Shown one piece after another: positions 714 through 16,117 of a stretch of 21,680 bases of DNA. The DNA comes from a virus. Lineage: Duplodnaviria > Heunggongvirae > Uroviricota > Caudoviricetes. Numbering within the stretch: position 1 is the stretch's first letter; each line of letters begins with the position of its first letter. The stretch spans positions 108,794 to 130,473 of the IMG/VR virus record IMGVR_UViG_2974628062_000001; one strand, written 5' to 3'. The position numbers and the translations under genes are program-made. The notes beneath the pieces were generated by a model that saw only the letters and a list, made by a program, of their open reading frames with translations, did not search any database and was not told the DNA's origin.

Positions 714-727
714 GGCAGGCTGCTAGG

Positions 728-1758: not shown

Positions 1759-1950
1759 ATGGAAAAGCACGAAACTCTTCGGGTGTTCATCGTTGGTGCG
1801 TTCATCACCATCGTCCTGCTTGGCATCATCGGAGGCATGGTGTATGCTGGTCACCAGAACAACGTCAAGGACCAGAAGATGACCGTTGAGTGTCTGAAGA
1901 ACGGCGGAGAGACAAAGTACAGCAGCAACATGCTGGTCTGCGACAAGTAG
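1759..1950 (+). CDS. small membrane protein (63 aa)
   Basis: ATG 1759 after AGGGA; one TM helix, two C-terminal Cys. Confidence 0.75.
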   Translation: MEKHETLRVFIVGAFITIVLLGIIGGMVYAGHQNNVKDQKMTVECLKNGGETKYSSNMLVCDK

Positions 1951-1961
1951 GCCAGAGGGGG

Positions 1962-1990
1962 TTGACACCCCCAAGCTAGCAAGGTAGATT
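1962..1990 (+). promoter_or_regulatory. sigma70/HrdB-type promoter
   Basis: TTGACA-17-TAGATT. Confidence 0.8.
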
Positions 1991-2016
1991 GGTTCTCACA
2001 AGGAAGGGGAACGGAC

Positions 2017-2412: not shown

Positions 2413-2439
2413 TTAAATTCATGGTACTCTAGTGAAATC

Positions 2440-2461
2440 CGCTACCCCAAATGGGGTAGCG
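2440..2461 (+). terminator. hairpin without AAGCT tail upstream of NlpC/P60 gene
   Basis: CGCTACCCC-AAAT-GGGGTAGCG, 9 bp; no U tract. Confidence 0.45.
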
Positions 2462-2488
2462 CGTAATAAACTGAGGAGTTATTGTTTC

Positions 2489-2959
2489 ATGTATAAGAAG
2501 ACTGCGGCTATCGGAACGCTTCTTGTCTCTTCCGCTATGGTTATCGGCATTGCACCTAATGCTGAAGCTGCTACAACACAGGAAAAGGCTGCAAGCGTTG
2601 CAAAGGCTCAAATTGGGGACCCATACAAGTGGGGAGCAAAGGGGCCAAATGCATTCGATTGCTCAGGTCTTGTTTGGTATTCCTTTAATAAGGCTGGTAA
2701 GGCTTGGAGTTATAAGCCTACCAATGGAATGCGAAAGTATCAGACCAATGACATTACGGTGAGTCAGCGAAAGGTCGGAGACCTTATCTTCTTCCGTCGC
2801 AAGGGTTCATCTGATTGGAGCCATGTAGGAATCTATGTAGGTAGTGGATACATGGTTAATGCGGTAAATGGTAACACGTATAAGGGTGTTCGCAAGGGTA
2901 AGATAGTTGATGGGTACTGGAATAAGTACTACAGCGCTGACTACCGCCGCGTAAAGTAA
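2489..2959 (+). CDS. secreted NlpC/P60 peptidoglycan endopeptidase
   Basis: GAGGAG SD, ATG 2489; signal peptide ending AEA-A; GDPYKWGAKGPNAFDCSGLV (catalytic Cys) and SHVGIY (His). Confidence 0.9.
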   Translation: MYKKTAAIGTLLVSSAMVIGIAPNAEAATTQEKAASVAKAQIGDPYKWGAKGPNAFDCSGLVWYSFNKAGKAWSYKPTNGMRKYQTNDITVSQRKVGDLIFFRRKGSSDWSHVGIYVGSGYMVNAVNGNTYKGVRKGKIVDGYWNKYYSADYRRVK

Positions 2960-2993
2960 GACCTCAAAATCAGAAATACGCGGGGTGTTTCCC

Positions 2994-3022
2994 TTGACAC
3001 CCCGCAAGCTTCGCACTATAAA
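2994..3022 (+). promoter_or_regulatory. sigma70/HrdB-type promoter
   Basis: TTGACA-17-TATAAA. Confidence 0.6.
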
Positions 3023-3031
3023 AGGAGAACC

Positions 3032-3184
3032 TTGATTCGCATCGTAACAGGTATTGTGTTGGTGGTTCTTGGTGTGGTAGTCTCGTGCCTGTCTGAGCAA
3101 CAGAACATGGCAGTGATGATGGGTGTGGTTGGCGTAGGATTTTTGTTCGTGGGTATGCTTGACAAGCCCGAACCTACAGAGTAA
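3032..3184 (+). CDS. small 2-TM membrane protein (50 aa)
   Basis: AAGGAG SD, TTG start; MIRIVTGIVLVVLGVVVSC...PEPTE. Confidence 0.7.
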   Translation: MIRIVTGIVLVVLGVVVSCLSEQQNMAVMMGVVGVGFLFVGMLDKPEPTE

Positions 3185-3231
3185 GTTAGTCATCACAAGG
3201 CGGGAACACCCGCCAAGCTGAAGGGGTGAAA

Positions 3232-3594
3232 ATGAACGAGCTTCTGTACCACTTCGAAATCGGTCTCCCTGAGGGCTTCCAGAAGCCTGAGCAGCGTGTT
3301 AGAATCAACTACGGCAGGCACGCACGGAAGGAAGCATTTCAGGACCGCTACGGGCGCATCAAGCTCCCTTCGTTCGTCACCCTTGGTCGCTTTCAGGTCA
3401 TTGAGGTTGGCATGGTTGGCGACAAGGTTTCCAAGATTCTGTTTCGTGGTAGGCTCGATGAGACGCGAGACCTGTGCATCGTACTGATTCCGGGGGTTGA
3501 CAACCAGCCCTGGTTCTGCAAGACTGTCTGGGTAAACAAGAACAACGACAAGCACAAGACGCTTGACACCACCCGATACGAGACGGTAAGCTAG
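3232..3594 (+). CDS. phage hypothetical protein, possible BECR-fold nuclease
   Basis: YGRHA...DRYG.I.LP and KTVWVN..DKHKTL motifs; H-A helix start and terminal TVW strand reminiscent of RelE/DUF4258-type folds (tentative). Confidence 0.4.
   Translation: MNELLYHFEIGLPEGFQKPEQRVRINYGRHARKEAFQDRYGRIKLPSFVTLGRFQVIEVGMVGDKVSKILFRGRLDETRDLCIVLIPGVDNQPWFCKTVWVNKNNDKHKTLDTTRYETVS
3563..3592 (+). promoter_or_regulatory. sigma70/HrdB-type promoter inside gene end
   Basis: TTGACA-18-TAAGCT. Confidence 0.55.
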
Positions 3595-3618
3595 CATCAC
3601 CCAAACAAGGAGAATAAC

Positions 3619-3843
3619 ATGAACGGCTCGATTCGCTTCGGTACCTTCTTCACCTTCCTTGGTGGTAGCGCTGTTGCCAATGGTTTCTTCCGAATGGAAG
3701 AGAACATGACTCTGGGAATCATCCTCATTGTCTGTGGTGTCGCTATCGACATCATGGGTCTCAACTACGTTGAGAAGGGTGTGAAGGAGACCCTTCGGGT
3801 TCGTGACCTTGAGCGCAAGGCTGGTGTTCGCAAGAACGTCTAA
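3619..3843 (+). CDS. small 2-TM membrane protein
   Basis: AAGGAG SD; hydrophobic segments, basic tail. Confidence 0.8.
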   Translation: MNGSIRFGTFFTFLGGSAVANGFFRMEENMTLGIILIVCGVAIDIMGLNYVEKGVKETLRVRDLERKAGVRKNV

Positions 3844-3893
3844 GCAGTACCGGCCCTTCGGGGCCAAGCTTCCCATCAATCAAGGATGTGGGT

Positions 3894-4079
3894 ATGAAGT
3901 TTAACGGTCACATCGTTGCCGGGTTTGTTTCTCTGGGATTCTGTCATGGAATTGCAGAAGGGGCAATCGAATTCTTTAAGGCTGGAGATTATTTTCTGAG
4001 CATCATGTTCACTGTATTGGCGATGACAATATTCAGTCTTGGCTTTCATCTTCTCCAGTTCGGTTTCACCAAGAAGTAG
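3894..4079 (+). CDS. small 2-TM membrane protein
   Basis: AAGGA SD; hydrophobic. Confidence 0.75.
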   Translation: MKFNGHIVAGFVSLGFCHGIAEGAIEFFKAGDYFLSIMFTVLAMTIFSLGFHLLQFGFTKK

Positions 4080-4094
4080 CAGATAGGAATAGAA

Positions 4095-4667
4095 ATGACC
4101 AGGTTCTTTACTTCTGACACGCACTTCGGTCATGCTCGAATCATCGAGCTTTGCAATCGTCCTTTCTCTTCAGTTGAAGAGATGAATGAGGAAATGATTG
4201 CCCGATGGAATGCAGTTGTTAAGCCAACGGATACTGTCATTCATTTCGGAGATGTTGCACTGGGAAAGATTGCCGAGTCTCTGCCTCTCATTGAGAGGCT
4301 GAATGGAATCAAGTCTCTGATTCCTGGCAATCATGACCGAATCTTCTCGGGAGAGAAGGAGAAGCAGCGGATTCGATTCATGGAGAATTACGAGTGGGTT
4401 TTCAATGGCGGCATTATGCCTGAGACCTCTCGATTCAAGATTGACGGTAAGCTGGTCATGGGAAGTCATTTCCCATACAGCGGGGATTCTCATGGTGAGG
4501 ATAGGCACGCTGATAAGCGACCGAATGATGAGGGTCTGCCTCTGATTCATGGACATGTTCACGATAAGTGGAAGTTCAATGGTCGCATGTTCAACGTTGG
4601 TGTGGACGTGAACAACTTTACTCCGGTTTCTGAGGATGAAGTGGTTGCGTGGCTGCGTAGCCTGTAG
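4095..4667 (+). CDS. calcineurin-like metallophosphoesterase
   Basis: All five motifs present: SDTH, GD, GNHD, SH, HGHVH. Confidence 0.92.
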   Translation: MTRFFTSDTHFGHARIIELCNRPFSSVEEMNEEMIARWNAVVKPTDTVIHFGDVALGKIAESLPLIERLNGIKSLIPGNHDRIFSGEKEKQRIRFMENYEWVFNGGIMPETSRFKIDGKLVMGSHFPYSGDSHGEDRHADKRPNDEGLPLIHGHVHDKWKFNGRMFNVGVDVNNFTPVSEDEVVAWLRSL

Positions 4668-4728
4668 TAAAGTGGGGGTTGTTCGAGAGAGCAACCCCCA
4701 AGCTTCCCAAATCAACAAGGAGAAGAAA

Positions 4729-4959
4729 ATGTCTGCTCGTTCTGACAAGGCTGCTTTCGGTATGGCCCTTAACCTTGGCCTGTGCATTCTGAATGTGGTG
4801 TGTGCAATTCATTACCATGACGAGTCGGATGCTTACCTTCTGAATGCGGGTGCTGCGGTCTTCTGTGGATTCTTCTTTATTCTCAACATGTTCAGCTATT
4901 TCGCTGCCAAGTTCGATGAGGATGTTGAACGGACTTACCGCCGGATTTCGGGTAAGTAG
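4729..4959 (+). CDS. small 2-TM membrane protein (76 aa)
   Basis: AAGGAG SD; start MSARSDK. Confidence 0.8.
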   Translation: MSARSDKAAFGMALNLGLCILNVVCAIHYHDESDAYLLNAGAAVFCGFFFILNMFSYFAAKFDEDVERTYRRISGK

Positions 4960-5011
4960 TAATACCGCCCGCGAAAGTGGGCAAGCTTCCATAACTAACA
5001 AGGAGAATGTT

Positions 5012-5188
5012 ATGCGAGAGTCTACCATGTACTTCATTGCCGCTGTTGTCGCCCTCTTTGCGGTGATTGCGAATGCTGCAAGCAATGTCGGTGGATTTTG
5101 GGGTGGCCTTGTAATTGCCATGATTGTCGGCGCTGCAATGGGTCACTTCTTTGCTAAGGGTCTTATCCTTCGGGGTCGTAACCGTTAG
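5012..5188 (+). CDS. small 2-TM membrane protein (58 aa)
   Basis: AAGGAG SD; start MRESTMYF. Confidence 0.8.
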   Translation: MRESTMYFIAAVVALFAVIANAASNVGGFWGGLVIAMIVGAAMGHFFAKGLILRGRNR

Positions 5189-5236
5189 TGAAAGGCGGGG
5201 TTCGCCCCGCAAGCTTCCCAACTATAGGAGTAACAA

Positions 5237-5440
5237 ATGTTCGACTTTCTTCTGACTTCCAAGTTCAGCTTCATTCTTGCTGTGACTTGGACCTTCCTCG
5301 CCATTGTCAGCTTTACTGATGGTGAGTATTGGGTCGGTTGGCTTCAGCTCATCATCGCTATTCATGACCTGAATGAGGGAATGCAGACCCGGCTTATTGA
5401 GACTGGTTACTACGTCAAGGCTTCTAGCCTGGTCAAGTAG
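5237..5440 (+). CDS. small membrane protein (67 aa)
   Basis: AGGAG SD; hydrophobic N-terminal half. Confidence 0.8.
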   Translation: MFDFLLTSKFSFILAVTWTFLAIVSFTDGEYWVGWLQLIIAIHDLNEGMQTRLIETGYYVKASSLVK

Positions 5441-5487
5441 TAACATGGGGCTTCGGCCCCAAGCTTCCTCTGAATAAGGAGATAATT

Positions 5488-5940
5488 GTGGACCTGTTTA
5501 CCGCAGAGCGAAATGCAAAGCTTCTTATGGCTGCTCATGGATTGGTCGGGTGGCGTTTCGAATGGGATAATGCTGCAAGGCGATTCGGTCGGTGCACGTA
5601 CTCTACTCGTACCATTTCAATGTCTAGGCAATTGACTGTTCAGCGGACAGAGATGGCAGTCCGGAATACAATGCTTCATGAAATCGCACACGCTCTTGTT
5701 GGTCCTGGCCATGGTCATGATGCCGTTTGGCGGGCTAAGGCAATTTCAATCGGTTGTGATGGAAAGCGTTGTTCTGCTGACAAGGTAGAGGTTAATTACA
5801 AGTACGTAGCAAAGTGTCCTAATGGACATATCTCAAGGAAGTATCTTCGTAAGCCTCGCGCATCGGCAAGGGGGCGTTCCTGCCCCATTTGCAGCCCGGT
5901 TTACAATGCCAAGTATGCAATTAGGGTGGTGGCTATTTAA
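5488..5940 (+). CDS. SprT-like zinc metalloprotease domain protein
   Basis: RRFGRC; HEIAH (HExxH) followed by HGHDAVW; C-terminal CxxxH/CxxC. Confidence 0.88.
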   Translation: MDLFTAERNAKLLMAAHGLVGWRFEWDNAARRFGRCTYSTRTISMSRQLTVQRTEMAVRNTMLHEIAHALVGPGHGHDAVWRAKAISIGCDGKRCSADKVEVNYKYVAKCPNGHISRKYLRKPRASARGRSCPICSPVYNAKYAIRVVAI

Positions 5941-6119
5941 TGAGGGATACAGTTCCTTTCACTATCTACAAGGAACATGCAAAGACGGGTCATCAGTGGA
6001 GAGACAAGACTGATGATAACGAGAGGCGTAATATCGACACGGTAAGCAAGAGATTGTACATTTGCTCTTGTGGTTGGCTTGGTTGGTTTGCCACTGCTGA
6101 CTTGAATACTGTGAATTGA
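5940..6119 (+). CDS. hypothetical protein (59 aa), His/Cys possible Zn ligand set
   Basis: TAATG overlap; MRDTVPF...HAKTGH...ICSCGW. Confidence 0.65.
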   Translation: MRDTVPFTIYKEHAKTGHQWRDKTDDNERRNIDTVSKRLYICSCGWLGWFATADLNTVN

Positions 6120-6202
6120 TTTGGGTGGGGGATTACTCCCCCACCAAGCTTGCTACAACAGTCAGTACAAAGGTTGGCTGTGTGGCTCTCTAAGGAGGAA
6201 AC

Positions 6203-6496
6203 ATGAGGGTCTGGCTCGATGACCTCAGGGAGGCTCCAAGCGGTTGGCTCTGGCTCACCAGTAGCCGTACAGCCATCAATTGGCTTGAGTGGGCAAAGAT
6301 GCTGAACGCCCCTCCGCAAGCCTGGTCATTTGACCATGACCTAGGTGGTGACGACACCTCCCGTGCTGTGGTACTGTGGATGTGTGAGAACGAGTTCTGG
6401 CCGGATGAGTGTTATGTTCATAGCGCCAATCCAGTTGGAATCGAATGGCTTCGTGGTATGATTCAGCGATACGCTCCGGAAGGGACACTGAAGTGA
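6203..6496 (+). CDS. cyclic-phosphate-processing receiver (cREC)-like domain protein
   Basis: VWLDDLR, SFDHDLG, VHSANPVG motifs typical of this divergent REC family. Confidence 0.75.
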   Translation: MRVWLDDLREAPSGWLWLTSSRTAINWLEWAKMLNAPPQAWSFDHDLGGDDTSRAVVLWMCENEFWPDECYVHSANPVGIEWLRGMIQRYAPEGTLK

Positions 6497-6861
6497 GTCA
6501 CGGCAAGGTAGTCTGCAAGTGTGGTAAGGTAATTCAGCAGTGCCGCTGCATGGAAGGCCACAAGAACATTACCTACACTGATAGGTGTGAGCACGAGTGG
6601 TGGACTGAGCTTGAGAACGAGCTTGACAAGGAATATGACGTTGCGTCATACTGGGACAAGGAGAATCGTTATCTGGAGATTGACCTCCCTGTAGGTCGTC
6701 ACACACTTGAGGTGGCTCTCACCAACGTGTACGGTTTTGTGATTTCATTGGTGATTACCGATGAAACCGGCGGTATGATGGTGGAAAAGGACCTTCACAG
6801 TTGTGTGAAGCGTGAGCATCTTGCAGATACGATTCACAGCCTGTACACTAGCTATGAATGA
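6493..6861 (+). CDS. hypothetical protein with N-terminal Cys cluster (122 aa)
   Basis: GTGA overlap; CKC...CRC...C. Confidence 0.75.
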   Translation: MSHGKVVCKCGKVIQQCRCMEGHKNITYTDRCEHEWWTELENELDKEYDVASYWDKENRYLEIDLPVGRHTLEVALTNVYGFVISLVITDETGGMMVEKDLHSCVKREHLADTIHSLYTSYE

Positions 6862-6869
6862 GGGGTAAC

Positions 6870-7058
6870 ATGCCTGGTGCAAATTGGAATGACCTGACTC
6901 CCCAGGAAAAGGCGGATTGGTTCGACAATTCAATTCGCAAGTGGGAGAATCTGTCTGCTGAGCAAAAGCAGAAGGCAGCGGATGAAATTCGTAGGGCGCG
7001 TTCTGATTCTCGTAAGGGTCAGAAGCGCCACAAGAAGAAGCATTGGTGGAACCACTGA
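6870..7058 (+). CDS. hypothetical protein, basic C-terminus (62 aa)
   Basis: GAGGGG SD; MPGANWNDL. Confidence 0.75.
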   Translation: MPGANWNDLTPQEKADWFDNSIRKWENLSAEQKQKAADEIRRARSDSRKGQKRHKKKHWWNH

Positions 7059-7117
7059 TGTTCCGGCGGGTTTGAAATATAACCCGCCAAGCTTCCCTAA
7101 TTAAACAAGGAGTCGTA

Positions 7118-7303
7118 ATGACTAAGGGTATGACTGTCTTTCTCGCCAGTCTCGGATACTTCCTTTGCTTTGTGTGGTTCATGATTGCCAGTGCCAAGGT
7201 CGCTGCTGGACAAACTGACTGGACAGTGTACCTGAACTATGGTACATCTGTTATCTGGTCCGTTACGGGTACCATTTGGATGTGCAACACTAGGAACTTC
7301 TAG
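7118..7303 (+). CDS. small 2-TM membrane protein
   Basis: AAGGAG SD; hydrophobic. Confidence 0.8.
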   Translation: MTKGMTVFLASLGYFLCFVWFMIASAKVAAGQTDWTVYLNYGTSVIWSVTGTIWMCNTRNF

Positions 7304-7332
7304 TTGACACATCGAGTCTAGTTCGCTAGACT
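7304..7332 (+). promoter_or_regulatory. sigma70/HrdB-type promoter
   Basis: TTGACA-17-TAGACT. Confidence 0.75.
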
Positions 7333-7362
7333 CAAGCTTGTAAGACCAACCAAGGAGGAAAC

Positions 7363-7725
7363 GTGCACGTCAACACGTCTCAGCTTCGCAAGAACGATGT
7401 CGTTCACTGTCATGGTATGCAGTTGCTCATTGACCAGGACATTAAGGAGTACACTGGTCATGGTCCTAACCGACCGACTGTTTACCACACTTCCGCCAAG
7501 GTGATTAACCTTGAGGAATGCAAGCTCAATGGCACCATCGCTTGGCGAGAAGATGACGATACCTTCCATGATGGTCTGATTCCTCTTTCCTGGCTTTACC
7601 CCGATGTATTTCGTGGTGGTTGGGTTAAGGATTGGGATGCTGACCCGCGATGGGTAATTCAGGGTAATGAACTCGCTATGTGGCGAGTTTCCCGAAGGGA
7701 CGAAGCTAATGAGGATGCTGGGTAA
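7363..7725 (+). CDS. hypothetical protein (120 aa)
   Basis: AAGGAGG SD, GTG start. Confidence 0.8.
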   Translation: MHVNTSQLRKNDVVHCHGMQLLIDQDIKEYTGHGPNRPTVYHTSAKVINLEECKLNGTIAWREDDDTFHDGLIPLSWLYPDVFRGGWVKDWDADPRWVIQGNELAMWRVSRRDEANEDAG

Positions 7726-7840
7726 GCGTGGACAGCCGTTCTGCGGTAGCAAGTGCTGCGGAGAGAAGCGGGCAAAGAAGGCTCACACGCGTAGGATGAA
7801 GCGTCGGGAGCGGGGAAACCGTGCGTGGCGTAGCTTCTGA
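7715..7840 (+). CDS. small basic Cys-containing protein (41 aa)
   Basis: MLGKRGQPFCGSKCCGEKRAKKAHTRRMKRRERGNRAWRSF; stop lies just before a cassette hairpin. Confidence 0.65.
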   Translation: MLGKRGQPFCGSKCCGEKRAKKAHTRRMKRRERGNRAWRSF

Positions 7841-7858
7841 GAAAGTCGGTCGGGGGTG

Positions 7859-7887
7859 TTGACAAGGGTCGCACCCCCGACTAAGCT
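7859..7887 (+). promoter_or_regulatory. sigma70/HrdB-type promoter
   Basis: TTGACA-17-TAAGCT. Confidence 0.75.
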
Positions 7888-7917
7888 AGCACCATCAACA
7901 ACAACGAAGGGCATGAA

Positions 7918-8244
7918 ATGAACTTCCGAATCGACGTTCTTGCCGAGAATGGTGTCCCCTTCCGCGCGGTGTTCTTCCCGTTCGGTAAGAGTGAGAACTA
8001 CCCGGCGGTTGACACTGGTGAAGCTATGGTAGAGTTCTATGACTACCGTTACGCTAAGGGTGGGCGCTTCACTCCTGATGGTCAGTTCACTGGAGCACGA
8101 TACAACCTCTCCGACCTTCTTGAGGACCGTAAGCCTTTCACTGGACTTATCCTTGACGGTGGTGTAGAGTCGTGGCGTATCGATGGTGACACGTTCGAGA
8201 TGATTGTGCGTTGGCTGAAGAGCTTTGAGATTCTTCCTGGTTGA
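7918..8244 (+). CDS. phage hypothetical protein (108 aa)
   Basis: VEFYD.RY...GQF...GL.LDGG..SW; downstream of promoter. Confidence 0.8.
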   Translation: MNFRIDVLAENGVPFRAVFFPFGKSENYPAVDTGEAMVEFYDYRYAKGGRFTPDGQFTGARYNLSDLLEDRKPFTGLILDGGVESWRIDGDTFEMIVRWLKSFEILPG

Positions 8245-8269
8245 CAGGGAATCCGGGCGGGTGTAACAT
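8241..8269 (+). promoter_or_regulatory. sigma70/HrdB-type promoter
   Basis: TTGACA-17-TAACAT. Confidence 0.75.
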
Positions 8270-8350
8270 GGGGTTAATCCAGAAGGGGAAGGGAGTGGAA
8301 AGTCCCTCCCAACCCTTCTGGTCCCCAAGCTTCTCAACTTAAGGATGGAT

Positions 8351-8536
8351 ATGGACATCGCAAGCATTCGAAAGCTTGGATATGCACTGCTTCTTTCCTC
8401 CGCTGCTTTGATGTATGCTGGCAATGAAGCGCTGGAAATGAATGCAGTTGTCCTGGCAAACTTCGAATTCTTCGTGAGCATGATTTGCTTCACGAATGGT
8501 GGACTGGCTATCTACATGACCAATGGACTTAAGTAG
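8351..8536 (+). CDS. small 2-TM membrane protein
   Basis: AAGGA SD; hydrophobic. Confidence 0.75.
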   Translation: MDIASIRKLGYALLLSSAALMYAGNEALEMNAVVLANFEFFVSMICFTNGGLAIYMTNGLK

Positions 8537-8541
8537 GGATT

Positions 8542-8790
8542 ATGGAGTACATTAAGTACGAAGCTGGGTTCTTCTTCACCCCGGTTGAATCTACTGGACT
8601 GCTTGACCAGTACGACTGCTACGTGGTACACTCAAGCCTCAAGTACCAAAGAGGTCTGGGATATCCGGGAAGGCTGGAAAGGTTCAGCAGGCTCGGTGAG
8701 GTTCACGTAATCGTACACGCAAGAAACCGGCGCGTTGCTGAAAAGAAGGTTCGTCGCCTTCTCCGTAAGCATTACAGAAAGAACCGATAG
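8542..8790 (+). CDS. hypothetical protein, basic C-terminus (82 aa)
   Basis: ORF track; packed after previous gene. Confidence 0.75.
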   Translation: MEYIKYEAGFFFTPVESTGLLDQYDCYVVHSSLKYQRGLGYPGRLERFSRLGEVHVIVHARNRRVAEKKVRRLLRKHYRKNR

Positions 8791-8819
8791 ACTGCCAATG
8801 ACCCCGAAAGGGCGAGGAC

Positions 8820-8894
8820 AGCCCCAATAGCATAAAATGGCGAATGTACCTAGTTTATAATAGGTGATTGCAGGTTCGAATCCTGCTGGGGTTG
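8820..8894 (+). tRNA. tRNA-like gene with non-canonical anticodon arm (possibly degenerate Ile-TAT)
   Basis: Acceptor AGCCCCA/TGGGGTT, D arm GCAT/ATGT with GG in loop, perfect T arm GCAGG-TTCGAAT-CCTGC; anticodon arm ACCTA-GTTTATAA-TAGGT has an 8-nt loop; no encoded CCA. Confidence 0.65.
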
Positions 8895-9058
8895 CGGAGA
8901 CAATTCATATATTAGAATATGTCTCTATAAAAGAATAAATATAATGAACAGCAGGTCGAATTGCCTCTCGGTAATGAGTCCGTGGCTACAATACCTTGCG
9001 AGGGATAAAGATGGCAATGGTGAGTGCGGCTAACCTGCTAATATAATCTGGAGTTCTT

Positions 9059-9340
9059 ATGCGGCTTAAGGAAGTTGACCTTACTGGTTGGAAGTTCGAG
9101 ACGGAAAAGCACATGGGTTTCCGTGTCATGGGCCAGAATCAGTATTGGTGCTACGTTACTAAGCCTGATGGTGAGCGACTGAAGTTTGTTAGCTTCCAGT
9201 TTGGCCTGATGGTCAATGACCATCTGAGCACGTATGCTTGGACCGACAAGGGCGCTGAACGAAAGTTCATCAAGAGGGTGCGCAAGATGGTTCGAGATGA
9301 TATCGTGGAAGCAGAAAGCAAGACGACTAAGACTCTCTGA
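9059..9340 (+). CDS. hypothetical protein (93 aa)
   Basis: GGAG SD. Confidence 0.8.
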   Translation: MRLKEVDLTGWKFETEKHMGFRVMGQNQYWCYVTKPDGERLKFVSFQFGLMVNDHLSTYAWTDKGAERKFIKRVRKMVRDDIVEAESKTTKTL

Positions 9341-9354
9341 AGGAGACAGCCAAC

Positions 9355-9540
9355 ATGATGATGATTCCCGCTCCGCGTGTTGAGGTTGAGTTCCCGTGCA
9401 CTGAGAAGGGCTGTGATGGTTTCTACGTGCCTTACAGCGATGGTCTGATGGTCTGCTACGACGGACACGTTTCCAGCCTCTCTGTGGACGATGTAGAGCT
9501 TCCGGTTGGCGCACTTGTGCCAGTGCTGGAAGAGTGCTAA
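9355..9540 (+). CDS. small Zn-ribbon-like protein
   Basis: AAGGAG SD; C-x4-C...C-x3-H. Confidence 0.75.
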   Translation: MMMIPAPRVEVEFPCTEKGCDGFYVPYSDGLMVCYDGHVSSLSVDDVELPVGALVPVLEEC

Positions 9541-9598
9541 GGTTGTTCCAACGGCGGGGGAAACCCCGCCAAGCTTCCCAACAAAACAGGAGAATGAA

Positions 9599-10024
9599 AT
9601 GAACAAGAAGAACGTTGCTCTCGCTGTCGGTGCTGTTGTTCTGCTTACTGGTGGTCTGACTGCCTGTAACGATGACGATGCAAAGGTTGCTTCTGAGAAT
9701 GTGTCCAAGGCTGCTGACAACTTTGAGGTCAACCGCCGGATTACATTCATCAATGGTATCACTGACAAGTATCTTGTTGTTGTTACCGGCGCTTGTTCGA
9801 TTGAGGCTGAGTCTAAGCAGCTTGAGGTCATTTGCAAGACTGGTAAGGATGAGTACAAGAAGTTGATGCTTGGCCTTTCTGACAATGTCACGTACACTGT
9901 TGAGCAGGGTGAGCCTGTAAAGGCTAGTGCTTACCACTACCGTATGACCTTCAAGCCTCAGTCGATTCTTCCGGATGTTGATTTCCGGGGCTCTACTGAT
10001 GATGGTCCGCGTAACCAGGATTAA
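9599..10024 (+). CDS. lipoprotein (141 aa)
   Basis: AGGAG SD; signal peptide with lipobox LTAC. Confidence 0.85.
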   Translation: MNKKNVALAVGAVVLLTGGLTACNDDDAKVASENVSKAADNFEVNRRITFINGITDKYLVVVTGACSIEAESKQLEVICKTGKDEYKKLMLGLSDNVTYTVEQGEPVKASAYHYRMTFKPQSILPDVDFRGSTDDGPRNQD

Positions 10025-10072
10025 TATCCTGGGGCCGGGAAACCGGCCAAGCTTGCAATATCCATAACTAAC

Positions 10073-10297
10073 ATGGGGTTGACCGTGAAGAAGATTGTTG
10101 CTAAGCTCCGTCGTAACAAGGACCTGAACACCTTCGTTGTCTACATGACGAATGGCAAGAAGTTCAAGGTCAAGGCTAAGAATGCAACGCTTTGGTACAA
10201 GACAGGAACTGGAATTTGCTGTGACATTAAGTGGGAGGGGCGAGTTACCGACTTCTCTCCTGCCCCTGCCTCTGTTGCCGCTCTGGTTAAGAAGTAA
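10073..10297 (+). CDS. basic hypothetical protein
   Basis: ORF between two cassette elements; start could be GTG 10085. Confidence 0.75.
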   Translation: MGLTVKKIVAKLRRNKDLNTFVVYMTNGKKFKVKAKNATLWYKTGTGICCDIKWEGRVTDFSPAPASVAALVKK

Positions 10298-10354
10298 GCA
10301 ATACCGGGCGAGAAATCGCCCAAGCTTCCCAGCAATCTACCAAGGAGAATTAAA

Positions 10355-10636
10355 ATGCTGGTTGTTCTTGTCAATGACGCTTCTGACCTTCCCTGGTCTT
10401 TCAAGGGATGGAAGGTGAATTACAAGCGGATTGGTCAGACGACTTACGGCTACCAGTTTGTTGACCCGTCTGGTACTGTTCACTCGAATGCGTGCGACGC
10501 TTCTGGATTCTACAAGCAGTACAATGTGAAGTCTGTTGAGCATCTTCTCACTGAGGCTGTGAATTCCTCTAACGCTCGATATGCAATGGAGAAGTACCTT
10601 CTCAAGCACGGTGAGGTTGAGACTGTAGAACTGTAG
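10355..10636 (+). CDS. hypothetical protein (93 aa)
   Basis: AAGGAG SD. Confidence 0.8.
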   Translation: MLVVLVNDASDLPWSFKGWKVNYKRIGQTTYGYQFVDPSGTVHSNACDASGFYKQYNVKSVEHLLTEAVNSSNARYAMEKYLLKHGEVETVEL

Positions 10637-10684
10637 TAAACGGGCGGGTTTTCCCGCCCAAGCTTCCCAACTAAGGAGAATGAA

Positions 10685-10867
10685 ATGCGTACTTACGACA
10701 TCGAAATCTTTTTCATGGATGGCACGTCTCGTAAGTTCAATGGTTGCAAGCGTCCTGTAGATGCTGAAGAGAGCAGCTATGGGGTTATGGAGAATGACGG
10801 AAAGACGGTTCATATCTACCCGATTCACAGGGTTTGCGAGATTGTTCAGGTCCGTCACGATTCGTAA
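10685..10867 (+). CDS. hypothetical protein (60 aa)
   Basis: AAGGAG SD. Confidence 0.8.
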   Translation: MRTYDIEIFFMDGTSRKFNGCKRPVDAEESSYGVMENDGKTVHIYPIHRVCEIVQVRHDS

Positions 10868-10917
10868 GAATCGGCCCGGTTTACCGGGCAAGCTTCCCTA
10901 CTAAGATTGGATACGCA

Positions 10918-11121
10918 ATGTCTCGGAAGACTGAAGCTTTCCGGCGGGATATGATGATGGGTACCATTACTCCTCATATTCCTGCTCAGATTCCCGATTG
11001 GGAGCCATACGTAATCGCAGAGAAGAAGGTTCCTTGCCCACGATGCGGCAAGTCGGTTAAGCTCAATGGAAAGGCTGTTGAGCAGCATTATGCAGCAACT
11101 TCAAATTACATCTGCCACTAG
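10918..11121 (+). CDS. Zn-finger-like protein (67 aa)
   Basis: CPRCGKSV...QH...IC. Confidence 0.7.
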   Translation: MSRKTEAFRRDMMMGTITPHIPAQIPDWEPYVIAEKKVPCPRCGKSVKLNGKAVEQHYAATSNYICH

Positions 11122-11596
11122 AATCGGCAACAGAGAAGACGCACAAACTGTAGCTGAGTGGGATTGGAACGACAATGAGTTCCCCGAAGGATGGTATTAT
11201 CTAGGGGAAGGTGCTCAAAGACTGGTTCTTCTCAGCCCCGATGGTGTAGTCTACAAAAAGGAAAAGCCGGGCGAACATCAGGTCAATGAAGATGAGTTCG
11301 TAAATTACTTCAAGGCCAGTAGGATTCCGGTGAAAAACTGGCGGGTTCCAAAGACTGGCTTGTATGTGATAGGCTTTGAACCAGTAATTGCAATGGAGTA
11401 CGTTGAAGGAAAGTACGACATTGAATGCAGGCGATATGGAGTAGGATTCAATGAGGGTTGTACCTGCTTGCAAACGCCTTGTACTGCATGGGAATGGGAA
11501 AAGCCAACGACTCTATGGGATATCATTGACCTATCAGAGACAAACATTCTGATAGAGGAAGATGGTACGCGAGTTCTGATTGACATTGTGGCCTAA
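11090..11596 (+). CDS. minimal protein-kinase-like protein
   Basis: LGEGAQR (Gly loop), VVYK (Lys), NEDE (helix C), IAMEYVEG (hinge), DLSETNILI (catalytic loop), VLID; start 11066 or 11090. Confidence 0.7.
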   Translation: MQQLQITSATRIGNREDAQTVAEWDWNDNEFPEGWYYLGEGAQRLVLLSPDGVVYKKEKPGEHQVNEDEFVNYFKASRIPVKNWRVPKTGLYVIGFEPVIAMEYVEGKYDIECRRYGVGFNEGCTCLQTPCTAWEWEKPTTLWDIIDLSETNILIEEDGTRVLIDIVA

Positions 11597-11646
11597 CGGT
11601 CAGCGGACGAAAGTCCGCAAGCTTCGTACAATAGAAGGAGAAACAC

Positions 11647-11793
11647 ATGGCTAAGTCGGTTCGTCGCATTCAGTCTCAGAAGATTCAGACTCCCCGGAGC
11701 AAGAAGACGCGAGACTATCGCAACGGAAATGACTTCTCCAACTTCAAGGGTCCTCGCTACACTCGTAAGGCTAAGTACTCTCAGGAGTGGTAA
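11647..11793 (+). CDS. small very basic protein (48 aa)
   Basis: AAGGAG SD; MAKSVRRIQSQK...RKAKYSQEW. Confidence 0.75.
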   Translation: MAKSVRRIQSQKIQTPRSKKTRDYRNGNDFSNFKGPRYTRKAKYSQEW

Positions 11794-11966
11794 TGGAATA
11801 TGTTGCTAGGGTATGTAGCTTCCTGTTTGGTGTGGGAGTGTTTCTACTAATGGCATGGAATTCTCACAACCACCTTTATGGCATTGAGCCTAATATCGGT
11901 GCATGGGGATTCATTGGGATTCCAGTTTCTTCACTGGCTATGGCAGCAGCCATCCATAAGAAGTGA
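11793..11966 (+). CDS. small 2-TM membrane protein (57 aa)
   Basis: TAATG overlap; MEYVARVCSFLFGVGVFLLMAW... Confidence 0.7.
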   Translation: MEYVARVCSFLFGVGVFLLMAWNSHNHLYGIEPNIGAWGFIGIPVSSLAMAAAIHKK

Positions 11967-12032
11967 ATTCCGGCGGGTTACTAAACATCGTAACCCGCAA
12001 GCTTCATCATTAAATACAATTAAGGAATAACA

Positions 12033-12266
12033 ATGGAGCGGTTTCTTCAGGCACTCTTCACGGGCATCATCGGCTTCTTCATTGAGGGATGGATGCTGAT
12101 GCTTTTCCTTGGTGGTGTGCATCACGAGGTTCTTTCCTCAGTCAATCCGATTGGTTACTGGACTGCCTGTCTCCTTTCGGTTCCGCTTGACATCATGATT
12201 GTCTCGTACTTCTCTCTCACGTCGAATCGTGTTGATGAGATTCACAAGGCAGTGGTGATTAAGTAA
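12033..12266 (+). CDS. small 2-TM membrane protein
   Basis: AAGGA SD; hydrophobic. Confidence 0.8.
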   Translation: MERFLQALFTGIIGFFIEGWMLMLFLGGVHHEVLSSVNPIGYWTACLLSVPLDIMIVSYFSLTSNRVDEIHKAVVIK

Positions 12267-12329
12267 AACTCTGGGCAATTACGAGAGCATCGTAATTGCC
12301 CAAGCTTGTCTATAAAGGAGAATGATACA

Positions 12330-12476
12330 ATGAAGCAGGGAAGCGACAAGAAGACCGTTGCGGGCATCGTCGCCTTTGGCGGTTGCTGGCTCGTGGGAGC
12401 CCTTCTGAGCCTCGCAACGACTGTCCTGGTCATCTGGGGACTCTGGGAGGGTATCCAGTGGCTACAGCGCCACTGA
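12330..12476 (+). CDS. small membrane protein (48 aa)
   Basis: AAGGAG SD; MKQGSDKKTVAGIVAFGG...WLQRH. Confidence 0.75.
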   Translation: MKQGSDKKTVAGIVAFGGCWLVGALLSLATTVLVIWGLWEGIQWLQRH

Positions 12477-12538
12477 GAGCTTTTCCGGCGGGTGTGCGTG
12501 TGACCCGCCAAGCTGTGATACAGTAAGGAGGCAAGACA

Positions 12539-12601
12539 ATGAGGCAAGTTTGTCCGTTCTGTCATCGTATGAGATGCATCTGTCGTCATATATTCTCTTA
12601 G
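12539..12601 (+). CDS. Cys-rich micropeptide (20 aa)
   Basis: AAGGAGG SD; MRQVCPFCHRMRCICRHIFS. Confidence 0.6.
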   Translation: MRQVCPFCHRMRCICRHIFS

Positions 12602-12609
12602 GATGAATC

Positions 12610-12777
12610 ATGAAGAAGAGTTCAAAGCTACGCCTGTTCCTCTTGACCAGTCTTGGCGGATTGGTTATACTGGCGATGATGTTCGGGCTGATGATGGGTA
12701 TCCTGATGCTTGACAACAGCCCGAACAAGTGTGCATCCAAGGTAGCAGCAAAGGTCTACGACCCTGCTTGTTTCTGA
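12610..12777 (+). CDS. small membrane/secreted protein (55 aa)
   Basis: AGGA SD; MKKSSKLRLFLL... one TM, C-terminal Cys pair. Confidence 0.65.
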   Translation: MKKSSKLRLFLLTSLGGLVILAMMFGLMMGILMLDNSPNKCASKVAAKVYDPACF

Positions 12778-12779
12778 GG

Positions 12780-12808
12780 TTGACAGCCACACGCAAGTGT
12801 GGCAAGCT
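12780..12808 (+). promoter_or_regulatory. possible sigma70-type promoter
   Basis: TTGACA-17-CAAGCT. Confidence 0.5.
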
Positions 12809-12839
12809 TGCAGCAACGGAACGAACCTGAGAGGTTGAA

Positions 12840-13235
12840 ATGAAGCTCTTCGGTAAGAAGCTTGACAAGGTGCCAGACCAGCGTAAGATTGAGGAACTGG
12901 AGATTGAGCTTGGTCTTACTCCTATCGTAACTGAGGAGAATTTCGAGCGGGAGTTTGACAGGGCTATCATCAATGACTACCGTGAGAAGTACGGTAAGAC
13001 ATGGATTGAAGCTCAGGCATACGAGAGGACTTACTACAATCGTCACAATCATTTTCGTGATGACCCTGAAGAGCGACAGTTGAAGAGGGAATGGGAAGAG
13101 AAGGGTTCAGAGGCTGAGCTTGCTTTTGACGAGACCCGCTCTTTGCTGACTCAGGAATCAAGTCGGGAGGAGTTCGAAAAGGAATTCAACCCGAGTCATG
13201 AGAACAACTACCGCTCTTGGCACTCGTATTACTAA
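12840..13235 (+). CDS. charged hypothetical protein (131 aa)
   Basis: GAGG SD; E/R-rich. Confidence 0.8.
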   Translation: MKLFGKKLDKVPDQRKIEELEIELGLTPIVTEENFEREFDRAIINDYREKYGKTWIEAQAYERTYYNRHNHFRDDPEERQLKREWEEKGSEAELAFDETRSLLTQESSREEFEKEFNPSHENNYRSWHSYY

Positions 13236-13292
13236 AATTGAATAGGGGCTATGGCCCCAAGCTGACGGGTCCTCCGGAAACATGGAGCTGAA

Positions 13293-13655
13293 GTGAAGAT
13301 TCGGATTCGTAACTCTGCCATCGTAAACCCGCGCAAGCCTGATTACGATGCAATCAAGAAGATGGAGAAGGAACTTCTTGGTGAGTTTCCTTCATTCGAA
13401 ATCAATTACAATGAGATGTTGATTAAGGATTTCGAGAATCGTAAGAGGGATGGCAATTGGCCTGCACGTCAGACCATGCTTGAGCTTGGGTACTTGAGCG
13501 AAGAGCTTTACAATACCCCGCAACGATTCGATATCCTTCGTAAGTATTCCATGTGGAGAAAGGCTTACTACGAAAGCAGGATGAACGACCCTGAGAATCG
13601 TAAGCGATATGACGCTCTTCGTTCTCGCATGATGCGTGGAAGGCAGTGGCGTTAA
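13293..13655 (+). CDS. hypothetical protein (120 aa)
   Basis: GGAG SD, GTG start; N-terminus (P.Y..IK.ME.EL) loosely like that of 12840. Confidence 0.75.
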   Translation: MKIRIRNSAIVNPRKPDYDAIKKMEKELLGEFPSFEINYNEMLIKDFENRKRDGNWPARQTMLELGYLSEELYNTPQRFDILRKYSMWRKAYYESRMNDPENRKRYDALRSRMMRGRQWR

Positions 13656-13720
13656 ATTCGCGGGGGTTGAAAAACCCCCAAGCTGTATTACCCCATCGTA
13701 AATAACATAAGGAATGTATT

Positions 13721-14020
13721 ATGAAGCGCATTGCTGCTCTCACTGCCTCTGTCGTTGCTGGCTCGGTTCTTCTGACTGGCTGCGGTTCTCTGGGAAGCGG
13801 AGAGAAGGTCAATCCGCCTGCCAAGGGAATGGTGTACAAGCGTGAGCAGTCGCTTGACAGTACTGGTCATGTGGTTTATGAGCTGAGTCTCACGACTGAC
13901 CGTAAGGCCATTCGTCGTAAGGCTTCTCGTGCCACCCCTTCTAAGCAGAAGGACATCACGGTTTCTGCGAGTGTCTACAAGAGCTGTGAGCTTAAGGAAA
14001 TGTACCCTGCTTGTAAGTAA
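13721..14020 (+). CDS. lipoprotein (99 aa)
   Basis: AAGGA SD; lipobox LTGC. Confidence 0.82.
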   Translation: MKRIAALTASVVAGSVLLTGCGSLGSGEKVNPPAKGMVYKREQSLDSTGHVVYELSLTTDRKAIRRKASRATPSKQKDITVSASVYKSCELKEMYPACK

Positions 14021-14078
14021 GGGTATGGGGCGAAAGCCCCAAGCTTCAAAAACTCTGGGCTAAAAAGGAGCCATCGTA

Positions 14079-14276
14079 ATGGCAGTTCTCACGTACACTG
14101 TTGGCCGCCTTCGTCGCAAGGAATTCCGAGCGACCCTTTCTGAATTCAGCATGAAGGGAAAGGTTGACAATTACGAAGAGGTAAAGGGATTTCTCGATTC
14201 CCGATTCGTAATTGATGCCAGCATTGACAATCATGTGGAAATCATCAAGAGTCTTGATGTGAACTTGGAAGAGTAA
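14079..14276 (+). CDS. hypothetical protein (65 aa), last gene of left array
   Basis: AAGGAG SD. Confidence 0.8.
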   Translation: MAVLTYTVGRLRRKEFRATLSEFSMKGKVDNYEEVKGFLDSRFVIDASIDNHVEIIKSLDVNLEE

Positions 14277-14371
14277 AAACTCTGGGCTGATTTCTAGCCA
14301 TCGTAAAGGCAAAAATTCTGGGTGTTTTTTGGACCATCGTAAATGGGTCCCCGGCGGTTAGGCTGCCTAAA

Positions 14372-14670
14372 TGTACCACGGTTTGTACCGTGGTACAAAG
14401 CTTGCTACAAACCAGGGTCGTTGAATGTTCAACCATTCAACCCTCAAAGGTTGAACGTTGAACTATCCAGCGGGTTGAATGTTGAAAGTTGAACAACCTG
14501 TGCCGACTGGGATTGTACCAACCACTGTAGCAATACAAACGTTGATACAATCCGGGATTGTTGAAAGCTCAACAATCAAGGTCTAAGAGGTTGAACGTTA
14601 AACTACTTCTGTAGCATCGATTGTAGCAATACAAAGCGTGGTACAAAGCCGGTCGGCCAGAGTTGTTGAA
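14372..14670. repeat. non-coding cluster of GTTGAA/TTCAAC and TACAA-type repeats
   Basis: GTTGAA at 14420, 14450, 14457, 14474, 14481, 14488, 14560, 14590, 14665; TTCAAC at 14428, 14436; CGTGGTACAAAGC x2 (14389, 14637); TGTAGCAATACAAA x2 (14526, 14622). Confidence 0.85.
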
Positions 14671-14676
14671 TCCCGC

Positions 14677-14697
14677 ACATCCACACCCTGTGGATAA
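14677..14697. promoter_or_regulatory. DnaA-box pair (perfect TGTGGATAA plus inverted 2-mismatch box, 3-bp gap)
   Basis: ACATCCACA-CCC-TGTGGATAA; TGTGGATAA is the reverse complement of TTATCCACA. Confidence 0.55.
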
Positions 14698-14943
14698 CTT
14701 CGCTACTCTGCGCAATGTTACTTCACAGTATGTGAGAAAAGCTCTGTACGCCTCTCTGAGCGCCTTTCAGGGGTTGGCACGTCCAACCACCCTAGGACCC
14801 TCACGAAAGGCCGTTAGACGCGAATTTCACGCTGTGTAGTATCTGACGGACCGTTGGGAAACCATGGAAAACAGCAGGTCAGACAGCGTTTCGCTATATA
14901 TGCAAGGTTGTTGAATAACTCCGGGCTGTCACTCTCTGGTGAC

Positions 14944-14952
14944 TGTGGATAA
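14944..14952 (-). promoter_or_regulatory. perfect DnaA box
   Basis: TGTGGATAA in the repeated 13-mer CTGTGGATAACTT. Confidence 0.5.
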
Positions 14953-15238
14953 CTTCTTTTACCAAGTCGTTACCAAAACACGCCGACACAGGGGTTGACA
15001 TTCTTTAAAAATCATGCTCCCAGGGAGAAGCCGGCCAATTAGGTAAAATTTTGGTAAAGAACTTCAGAAAAGCTTGACACTGCTAGAGAGTTCCTGTATT
15101 TCGCGCACACTCGCACTCGCTCCGTGTGATGGGAGCGGCCCAAAAGCTACGCTGAGTAGCGACACGCCGAAGACATGCTAACTAAAAGTAGTTTTAGGCC
15201 GCTGACCTGCGGAAACGTACTTTTTCGGGGTTAGGGGG

Positions 15239-15268
15239 TTCCGAGCACTCGGAAACGTCGCCTAATGT
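15239..15268 (+). promoter_or_regulatory. promoter P1 of right block
   Basis: TTCCGA-18-TAATGT followed by GTCGGAAC. Confidence 0.5.
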
Positions 15269-15329
15269 TCTCTGTGTCGGAACGGAACGGCGGAACGGGA
15301 AACCGGGAAGTTGGGAAGGGAAGACAAGC

Positions 15330-15358
15330 TAGACACGCAAGACCGACTCTGATACAGT
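15330..15358 (+). promoter_or_regulatory. promoter P2 of right block
   Basis: TAGACA-17-TACAGT followed by CGGAAAC. Confidence 0.6.
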
Positions 15359-15433
15359 CGGAAACGCGCCGGAGGAAAACCCGAAAGGGCCAGTACAAAG
15401 GAACGCACTGGCAACACATTGAGAACTAAACAG
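15335..15433 (+). promoter_or_regulatory. rRNA-operon-leader-like segment (boxB-like hairpin plus boxA-like motif)
   Basis: CTGATACAGTCGGAAAC, CCGGAGGAAAACCCGAAAGGG..AGTACAAAGGAA, TTGAGAACTAAACAG match blocks I recall from Streptomyces rrn leaders; needs BLAST confirmation. Confidence 0.7.
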
Positions 15434-15781
15434 TGGGATTCAGAAACACATTACGCACCTAGAGCGCTAAAGCGTCCCTTGCCTGAACTTTGGGGAATAC
15501 GCCAATACATTGTTAGCGCGAATCGGTATTCTCGGCACTTTGCCAGAATTAGCGAAAAGACATTCTCTCCCTGCGCAGTGTGAGCGCATATCGAATGTGG
15601 CGGATATCCGGGCGGTAGACCGGGTGTGAATATCCAATCCGAGTAGCGAAATTCAGCGGGTGTTTTGTTTATTGGTCAATGGTGCGCCGTGTCCCGATTA
15701 TCTAGGGACTGTGGCTTTAGACGCTTACCCTTTCGAGCGTCTAGTGTCCACAAAGGAATTAGGGAAGAAAGTCAGGAAATC

Positions 15782-16117
15782 ATGACCACTGCCAAGGTTG
15801 CCAAGACTGCCACCCGCGCCCCCCGCAAGACTGCGGCGCGAAAGGCTGTCAGTGCCTCTCAGACGACCGTTTCCACGGTTGAGGTAGACGACCCGCAGAA
15901 CACGGCCGGTTGGACGTTCACGCGCCCCGTGGGGGCCGCTGAGTTCGTCTCTACGGGTGAGGGTCCCAAGCTGGAAAAGCTCACCCCCCGCGCGCTGGAG
16001 AACCTTACGGAACTCGCAACGGAAGGAAACACGGACTCCGCGCGGAAGTACTGGATTCGCGTGCTGTCCCGGTACGGCGTCACGGTGCCTTTCGTGCCGG
16101 TTGCCGATTCCGAGTAA
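15782..16117 (+). CDS. first gene of right block; Lys/Ala/Arg-rich histone-like N-terminal tail (111 aa)
   Basis: AGGA SD, ATG 15782; TTAKVAKTATRAPRKTAARKA; GC-rich host-like codons. Confidence 0.8.
   Translation: MTTAKVAKTATRAPRKTAARKAVSASQTTVSTVEVDDPQNTAGWTFTRPVGAAEFVSTGEGPKLEKLTPRALENLTELATEGNTDSARKYWIRVLSRYGVTVPFVPVADSE

Follow-up and report, generated by a model that had tools for sequence, protein, structure and literature searches.

The middle promoters of phage T4 combine a MotA box at -30 with a sigma-70 -10 element and serve the T4 tRNA genes as well as oriF and oriG, and the primary origin of phage T7 carries the tandem phage promoters phi1.1A and phi1.1B. Other short phage modules include the promoter-early stem-loop (PeSL) cassettes of T4-type phages, which carry ordinary sigma-70 early promoters, and the start-associated sequences of the cluster K mycobacteriophages, which stand at a fixed distance from start codons. 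The group of large Streptomyces phages considered here has genomes of 125-134 kb with dozens of tRNAs and a G+C content of ~50% (compared with ~72% in the hosts). Among bacterial promoters, the sigma-W sites of Bacillus subtilis consist of an AAC -35 core, a -35-proximal T tract and a CGTA -10 element (PMC5758882). In Streptomyces, sigma-ShbA, a sigma factor of the extracytoplasmic function (ECF) type, transcribes hrdB, has a measured -10 preference of C-12 G-11 N N R-8 A-7, and reads the hrdBp1 promoter with the sequence CGTAAC-N16-CGATGA (PMC12019637). The present analysis concerns a bipartite motif in the last 21,680 bp (the window) of a 130,473-bp phage genome, IMG/VR record IMGVR_UViG_2974628062_000001. 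The motif is an oriented, one-direction signal centred on TCGTAA that is conserved family-wide in the large Streptomyces phages, and its most probable role is to mark a second promoter class.

Across the region of interest, the window shares 84-85% identity with Limpid and Annadreamy, two Streptomyces phages (Stanwilliamsviridae, Loccivirinae). Nearly all genes of the phage genome are directed rightward, and a direct terminal repeat of 788 bp begins at window 20893. The initial annotation, made from the sequence of the window, described four full copies of AAAAYTCTGGGY-N11-CATCGTAA in a single orientation. A pattern search returned these four copies with zero mismatches, all on the plus strand, compared with 0 matches across 100 dinucleotide shuffles, and the whole genome contains the same four exact copies only. 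The copies are located as follows:

12265 to 12295, plus strand: first bipartite site, with a left half that begins on the stop codon of the gene at 12033-12266.
14049 to 14079, plus strand: second bipartite site, with AAGGAG in the spacer and a final A that is the A of the ATG of the gene at 14079-14276.
14276 to 14306, plus strand: third bipartite site and first of a tandem pair, beginning on the last stop-codon base of the last gene of the array (14079-14276).
14312 to 14342, plus strand: fourth bipartite site, the downstream member of the tandem pair; its spacer contains a T6 tract.

The settings initially proposed for individual copies were found as described. The copy at 12265 belongs to a cassette hairpin, its right half occupying the loop and the 3' arm of a hairpin with a 13-bp stem that is followed by AAGCTT (fold z -5.8), the copy at 14049 spans a Shine-Dalgarno sequence and a start codon, and the copies at 14276 and 14312 follow the final gene directly with a period of 36 bp. 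The left 12-mer AAAAYTCTGGGY occurs a fifth time at genome position 98191, where TTTCGTAA instead of CATCGTAA stands 11 nt later, and all five genome copies (5/5) have NNTCGTAA after 11 nt.

The genome was scanned with a matrix built from 33 sites, none of them belonging to the genus of the window (the cross-genus matrix). Nine sites were identified on the plus strand and none on the minus strand, with scores of 14.8-36.9 bits compared with a top score of 14.3 in 20 shuffles. Four of these are the window copies, at 20.7 bits (12265), 20.8 bits (14049), 25.9 bits (14276) and 36.9 bits (14312, the top-scoring site of the genome). The remaining five (genome 96376, 98215, 101100, 102564, and 105439) all precede the window and are scattered 18-27 kb upstream; at 105402, 37 bp ahead of the site at 105439, stands a neighbor with the right half only. 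The concentration toward the junction with the non-coding region that was proposed initially is therefore limited to the CATCGTAA subtype and does not extend to the family. The strand bias is equally visible in the shorter sequence TCGTAAAG, which has a plus-to-minus ratio of 14:1 in this genome and of 8:1 to 17:1 in 7 out of 10 relatives (9:2, 14:4, and 13:4 in the other three), a set that includes Jay2Jay (BE1) from the other of the two subfamilies sampled. Of the 14 TCGTAAAG sites in this genome, nine lie between genes or at their borders, with ~90% of the genome being coding by estimate.

An alignment of 48 distinct sites from 15 genomes yields a consensus with five parts: an A/T run, T-Y-T-G-G-S (TCTGGG in this genus), a T tract four positions on, A-C-C-(A/T)-TCGTAA, and A-G-G-G. 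In all four window copies, as in most of the 48 sites, the last G of TYTGG and the C of CGTAA lie 16 nt apart; a few sites deviate by 1-2 nt. CGTAA is present in 48/48 aligned sites but the sites were selected on TCGTAA, so that the independent check is the scan with the cross-genus matrix. All four sites are found at equivalent places in Limpid, Annadreamy, and Beuffert, and the conservation in relatives that was expected from the initial annotation takes the form of retained halves, variable spacers and a fixed spacing. The site at 12265 is kept in Limpid and Annadreamy and carries two changes in Beuffert, the site at 14049 has the same sequence in Limpid and Beuffert, and at the tandem sites both halves are invariant in Limpid and Beuffert with most of the 11 spacer positions changed. 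Unchanged halves with changed spacers are a footprint of selection that acts on the halves and the distance between them and leaves out the spacer sequence.

In more distant genera the right half is retained, as is the tandem pair after the last gene (a triplet in Kenrey). Faust, Sham, and TunaTartare retain the right half, the Shine-Dalgarno sequence and the ATG of the site at 14049 in front of a downstream gene that differs in annotation and N-terminus. The left 7-mer varies by lineage at a fixed spacing (TCTGGGC, TGTGGCA, TCCGGCA, TTTGGAG, and TCGTGAG). Most Gilsonviruses carry TGTGGCA, Moab pairs TCCGGCA with AATCGTAA, BillNye pairs TTTGGAG with CTTCGTAA, DekoNeimoidia pairs TCGTGAG with TTTCGTAA, and the left part in Faust, Sham, and TunaTartare consists of TTTTCT and four variable bases. 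Since the left 7-mer varies and the right half persists, the constant core of the motif is TCGTAA. The consensus proposed initially thus describes a real motif too narrowly: TCGTAA and its flanks are what stays constant, the left half differs between lineages, and the genome holds nine members instead of four. Copies of the motif are more alike within one genome than between genera which, together with the lineage-specific left box, is the pattern expected if the box co-evolves with a reader protein.

The tandem pair points into a non-coding region with three further features:

14372 to 14403, plus strand: hairpin with an 11-bp stem and AAGCTT after it, which is the array's final cassette and lies 30 nt past the tandem pair.
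14404 to 14680, no strand assigned: origin-like repeat field with GTTGAA-type and TACAA-type repeats.
14688 to 14956, plus strand: two copies of CTGTGGATAACTTC, each with the perfect DnaA box TGTGGATAA, 255 bp apart.

A repeat field is always found 3' of the tandem pair, with CGGACAT repeats in other genera, and the stretch with the DnaA boxes is the most conserved non-coding stretch (74-81% identity across genera). The first ~60 nt after the pair (14336-14410) contain two hairpins (z -2.8), the second of which ends with AAGCTT and has a stem that covaries in Faust; this double-hairpin stretch may represent a terminator or a short RNA. Immediately 5' of the tandem pair, Phredrick, Moab, BillNye, Muntaha, DekoNeimoidia, and Jay2Jay have a canonical terminator (GC stem and T run), which argues that the pair is not meant for read-through from upstream.

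Several additional observations were made around the tandem pair. The first 700 bp of Jay2Jay (L139, 200-700), which are the start of its long terminal repeat, contain several TCGTAA sites, a terminator and a tandem pair with a 36-bp period; the annotated gene 2 of this phage (536-808) is doubtful because it spans the terminator and the pair. Endonuclease genes are inserted in the non-coding region 230-490 bp past the pair in Forrest (HNH endonuclease; L121, 2536-2961) and TunaTartare (endonuclease VII; L122, 2552-2977). The non-coding segment at window 14716-14884 is 72-76% identical over ~130-170 bp to Forthebois, RickRoss, and WheeHeim (97.6% over 42 bp in WheeHeim), three 18-kb Streptomyces scabiei phages that are otherwise unrelated to the 130-kb phages and have no annotation in the matching region; no Rfam family matches the segment.

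A second conserved position of the motif is in front of the tRNA-Gln gene. Four genera (this phage and Limpid, Faust, Phredrick, and Muntaha) have 7-9 nt between the end of the site and the first base of the tRNA, each with the left box of its own lineage, and Moab has lost the site. The other tRNAs of this phage have TTGACA-N17-TANNNT at the equivalent position, and several sigma-70-type sites lie 10-28 nt ahead of tRNA genes. Across the whole genome, TTGACD-N16-18-TANNNT was identified 57 times on the plus strand and 7 times on the minus strand, mostly at 60-118 kb and in the window chiefly over 728-8241, a class that looks like ordinary host-type promoters with heavy use in the right arm. 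Past window 8241 there are two sigma-70-type sites only, both within a gene, and the CATCGTAA sites cluster in this same stretch; TTGACA-N16-18-TANNNT has no match at any of the four full copies. Among the tRNAs, ARAGORN reports one at window 8820-8895 without a definite identity that has a four-base anticodon (ttat) in an enlarged loop.

The right half CATCGTAA occurs eight times on the plus strand of the window (3040, 11986, 12288, 13319, 13694, 14072, 14299, and 14335) and once on the minus strand (13343-13350), a total of 9 compared with 0.5 expected. The initial annotation listed the lone copies at 11986, 13319, and 13694 correctly and missed those at 3040 and on the minus strand. The three listed copies differ in their context:

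13687 to 13705, plus strand: right half alone, ACCCCATCGTAAAT, 9 nt past a hairpin-AAGCTG and 8 nt ahead of the Shine-Dalgarno sequence of the gene at 13721-14020.
11980 to 11993, plus strand: right half alone, AACATCGTAA, within a hairpin-AAGCTT cassette and under the threshold of the cross-genus matrix.
13319 to 13326, plus strand: CATCGTAA within the gene at 13293-13655, in frame as Ile-Val-Asn, and lacking a left half (4-5 mismatches out of 12).

The layout at 13687 (hairpin-AAGCT, 8-10 nt, CATCGTAA, 7-10 nt, Shine-Dalgarno sequence) is repeated in Limpid, Beuffert, Faust, Phredrick, Kenrey, Forrest, and Stigma, and the sequence at 11980 is either a weak member of the family or a chance occurrence. 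The copy at 13319, initially taken as a partial bipartite copy, was dropped because it is coding sequence and not conserved in Limpid (TATCGTAA at that position), and was judged a coding coincidence and not a member of the motif. Hairpins directly followed by AAGCT(T/G) were found 59 times on the plus strand and 11 times on the minus strand (window 721-14403 and genome 68-123 kb). Six of these cassettes contain TCGTAA in the loop or the 3' arm, and the transcription start predicted below for such sites falls on the AAGCT. Between two cassette genes, at window 12540-12602, lies a 20-codon open reading frame with five cysteines (MRQVCPFCHRMRCICRHIFS) and a good ribosome-binding site. The genes at 12840-13235 and 13293-13655 were considered as possible paralogues and show no similarity.

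Three functions were proposed initially: a phage-specific promoter, a repressor operator, and an origin or packaging signal. The interpretation is supported in so far as it concerns co-oriented sites, each with two halves on the same face of the DNA, that would be bound by a protein, and not in its packaging or genome-end option. A promoter fits best of the three, as a prediction from the ECF-like geometry, the layouts with a terminator followed by a site, and the conserved site before the tRNA. The analysis establishes the motif with its conservation, orientation, geometry and positions; initiation by RNA polymerase at the sites, the choice of sigma factor and any link to replication are inferences. 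The proposal that the sites are promoters with ECF-sigma-like geometry (TYTGG-N16-CGTAA), with the tandem pair firing into the origin-like region, stands in our estimate about evenly balanced between right and wrong.

Under this proposal TYTGG would be the -35 box and CGTAA(A) the -10 box, 16 nt apart as in promoters of group IV (ECF) sigma factors, and transcription would start ~12 nt past the C of CGTAA. The predicted starts in the window are at ~12303 (within the AAGCT after the hairpin), 13709 (just before the Shine-Dalgarno sequence of the next gene), 14314, and 14350, and the predicted start at the tRNA-Gln site is one base ahead of the tRNA. The reader would be the host RNA polymerase with either a host ECF-type sigma factor or a phage factor that escaped recognition. 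Dispersed copies would restart transcription inside the extended rightward series of tRNAs and small genes, for the most part downstream of where sigma-70-type promoters abound. From the tandem pair behind the last gene, short transcripts would run into the region of the repeats and the DnaA boxes and might, purely by analogy with the T7 and T4 origins, activate, open or prime replication.

The motif resembles ECF promoters such as the sigma-W sites in having two boxes 16 nt apart, a -10 box that starts with CG(T), a T tract in the spacer and a purine-rich stretch after the boxes. In contrast to ECF promoters, the -35 box TYTGG is neither of the AAC type nor CGTAAC, and the T tract is 3-4 nt further from the -35 box. 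Sigma-ShbA would be the best host candidate because its measured -10 preference CGNNRA fits CGTAAA, which is a lead and not a test: the -10 box of the motif fits the CGNNRA rule in 31 out of 48 sites (those with A at -7) but the -35 sequence CGTAAC is not present. It is a speculative extension, with little more than an outside chance of being correct, that sigma-ShbA as an always-active ECF sigma factor reads the second promoter class of the phage, that the tandem pair primes or opens the origin, and that the left box tracks differences in the sigma factor across the host range or a small phage adaptor.

With the middle promoters of T4 the motif shares an upstream box ~11-13 bp from the downstream box and copies in early gene arrays, before a tRNA and beside an origin-like region. 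It differs in that the downstream box is not TANNNT and the host is an actinomycete; we know of no MotA- or AsiA-like gene in these phages. The tandem pair resembles phi1.1A and phi1.1B of T7 as two close, co-oriented promoter-like sites ahead of a non-coding, repeat-rich region that is richer in A/T, and the right half with its flanks (e.g., TTTGACCCTTTCGTAAAGGG at genome 105439) resembles a T3/T7 promoter ending in TAAAGGG. Unlike in T7, a gene for a single-subunit RNA polymerase was not found in the phage, and the left box of the motif is outside the span of a T7-type promoter. As with PeSL cassettes and start-associated sequences, the motif is a short module between small genes, sometimes a hairpin with a promoter-like box, that precedes different genes in relatives. 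In contrast to start-associated sequences, its distance to the start codon varies from overlap with the ATG to 19 nt (TCGTAA-ATG), and no gene follows the tandem copies.

A number of findings weigh against a promoter. The putative -35 box TYTGG lacks the AAC core typical of ECF promoters (an AAAAC of this genus is 21 nt from CGT and absent in other genera), and the -10 box is not TANNNT. The predicted start of the copy at 14049 (near 14087) is 8 nt inside the gene and that of the site at genome 102564 is within or past the Shine-Dalgarno sequence, so that not every copy can drive the gene that follows. Two polymerases would not fit at once into the tandem period of 34-47 bp, which resembles the side-by-side packing of a smaller protein, and the pair in Jay2Jay faces convergent genes after ~220 bp. 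Several copies are part of hairpins, so that a role in RNA is confounded with a role in DNA at those copies. Pfam profile searches and open reading frame checks of the phage detected neither a sigma-70-family domain nor a T7-type polymerase: Sigma70_r2 had no match, Sigma70_r4_2 had a 13.9-bit match only, and PF00940 (T7-type RNA polymerase) had no match in the phage and none in the control genomes either. The large open reading frames include no unexplained one of a size suited to a single-subunit RNA polymerase, and Pfam and PHROGs searches with nine large, ten right-end and nine motif-flanking open reading frames detected no DNA-binding or polymerase family. The annotations of Limpid include WhiB-like and Lsr2-like proteins and neither a sigma factor nor an RNA polymerase; the WhiB-like protein of the phage has no AT-hook. 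Among public runs, no RNA run with reads of this phage group was listed and only metagenome contigs turned up; four wastewater runs labelled RNA-Seq contained only short, low-depth contigs of related phages that are uninformative on transcription starts. A literature search found no paper that describes promoters or the TCGTAA motif in these phages.

The missing AAC core, the start positions, the tandem period, the convergent genes in Jay2Jay and the absence of a detected sigma factor make a sequence-specific DNA-binding protein other than a sigma factor the serious rival, which we regard as possible but distinctly on the less probable side. Such a protein would have two parts that read DNA and would be a regulator of the phage, a replication initiator or a replication accessory protein; from lone sites among the arrayed genes and from adjoining sites beside the repeat field, it would control read-through, timing or origin firing. 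An asymmetric bipartite site with a fixed spacing and lineage-specific halves is what it would be expected to bind, and the tandem period of 34-47 bp corresponds to one 31-bp site and a short linker (three in a row in Kenrey). The constant adjacency of the tandem pair to the repeat field also fits, and the copy at 14049 covers a ribosome-binding site and a start codon, which would suit control better than initiation. A repressor operator, as proposed initially, may fall under this reading, but none of the sites is overlapped by a sigma-70-type promoter that an operator could control. Furthermore, the copies are spread across 27 kb with one right before a tRNA, unlike origin repeats, and no DNA-binding domain was found in neighboring or early genes (Pfam and PHROGs).

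In a role at the level of RNA, a nuclease or an RNA-binding protein would recognize either a hairpin that exposes UCGUAA in its loop or a linear tag, as a special variant of the hairpin-AAGCU punctuation between genes. Such a role can draw on the hairpin-AAGCT cassettes whose loop or 3' arm contains TCGTAA (window 11986 and 12265; genome 98215, 99274, 101100, and 104611), on surrounding stems that differ in sequence and yet pair, including those before tRNA-Gln in this phage and Muntaha, and on the strict confinement of the motif to the sense strand. However, only the copy at 12265 folds, with the tandem pair (z 0.07) and the copy at 14049 (z -0.41) showing no fold beyond that of shuffles, and the register varies from TCGTAA in the loop of some copies to the stem of others. 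The pair behind a strong terminator in six lineages would be poorly transcribed from upstream, and a fixed 11-nt spacer of unrelated sequence fits double-stranded DNA better than flexible RNA, so that we consider a purely RNA-level explanation unlikely. A packaging or genome-end signal, suggested by the Jay2Jay tandem pair 636-680 bp from the physical left end within the long terminal repeat, is very improbable and is unsupported in this phage because the terminal repeat begins only 6.5 kb further right with no site nearby (so that the non-coding region is not a physical end), and because sites also occur 18-27 kb upstream and the position of the end relative to the pair is not conserved between subfamilies.

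Several further assignments were tried and rejected. For sigma-54 (GG/GC boxes) the GC is out of register in 2 out of 4 copies and, to our knowledge, actinomycetes are without RpoN. In a comparison with the WhiG/FliA type (TAAA-N15-GCCGATAA) the right halves are alike at their ends, but lengths and spacing do not fit. Reading the right half as a sigma-ShbA -35 element (CGTAAC) leaves no copy with a CGAT-type box 16 nt downstream, and reading the minus strand with CGATGG as the -10 box leaves the would-be -35 position without conservation. Origin iterons disagree with the unrelated spacers and with the location of five out of nine sites 18-27 kb away, only the tandem pair adjoining the repeat field. 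The A tract of the sigma-I type is on the other side of the specificity region, and sigma-I (A tract and CGWA) is found in Bacilli and Clostridia (PMC10575876). An IMG/VR scan for tandem CCATCGTAA returned mostly chance matches in unrelated contigs and was not used. Rfam identified no family at the gathering score in window 11500-16000, with two sub-threshold microRNA matches only.

For phage genomes in which no sigma factor or polymerase has been detected, an oriented second signal beside the sigma-70-type promoters offers a concrete handle on the timing of expression. If the sites are promoters, nine start sites would be expected in this genome, together with a protein that co-evolves with the left box and an origin that is linked to transcription. 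Should the reader prove to be a host ECF sigma factor, this would represent a new route by which phages take over host transcription and would provide compact, orthogonal promoter parts for Streptomyces engineering.

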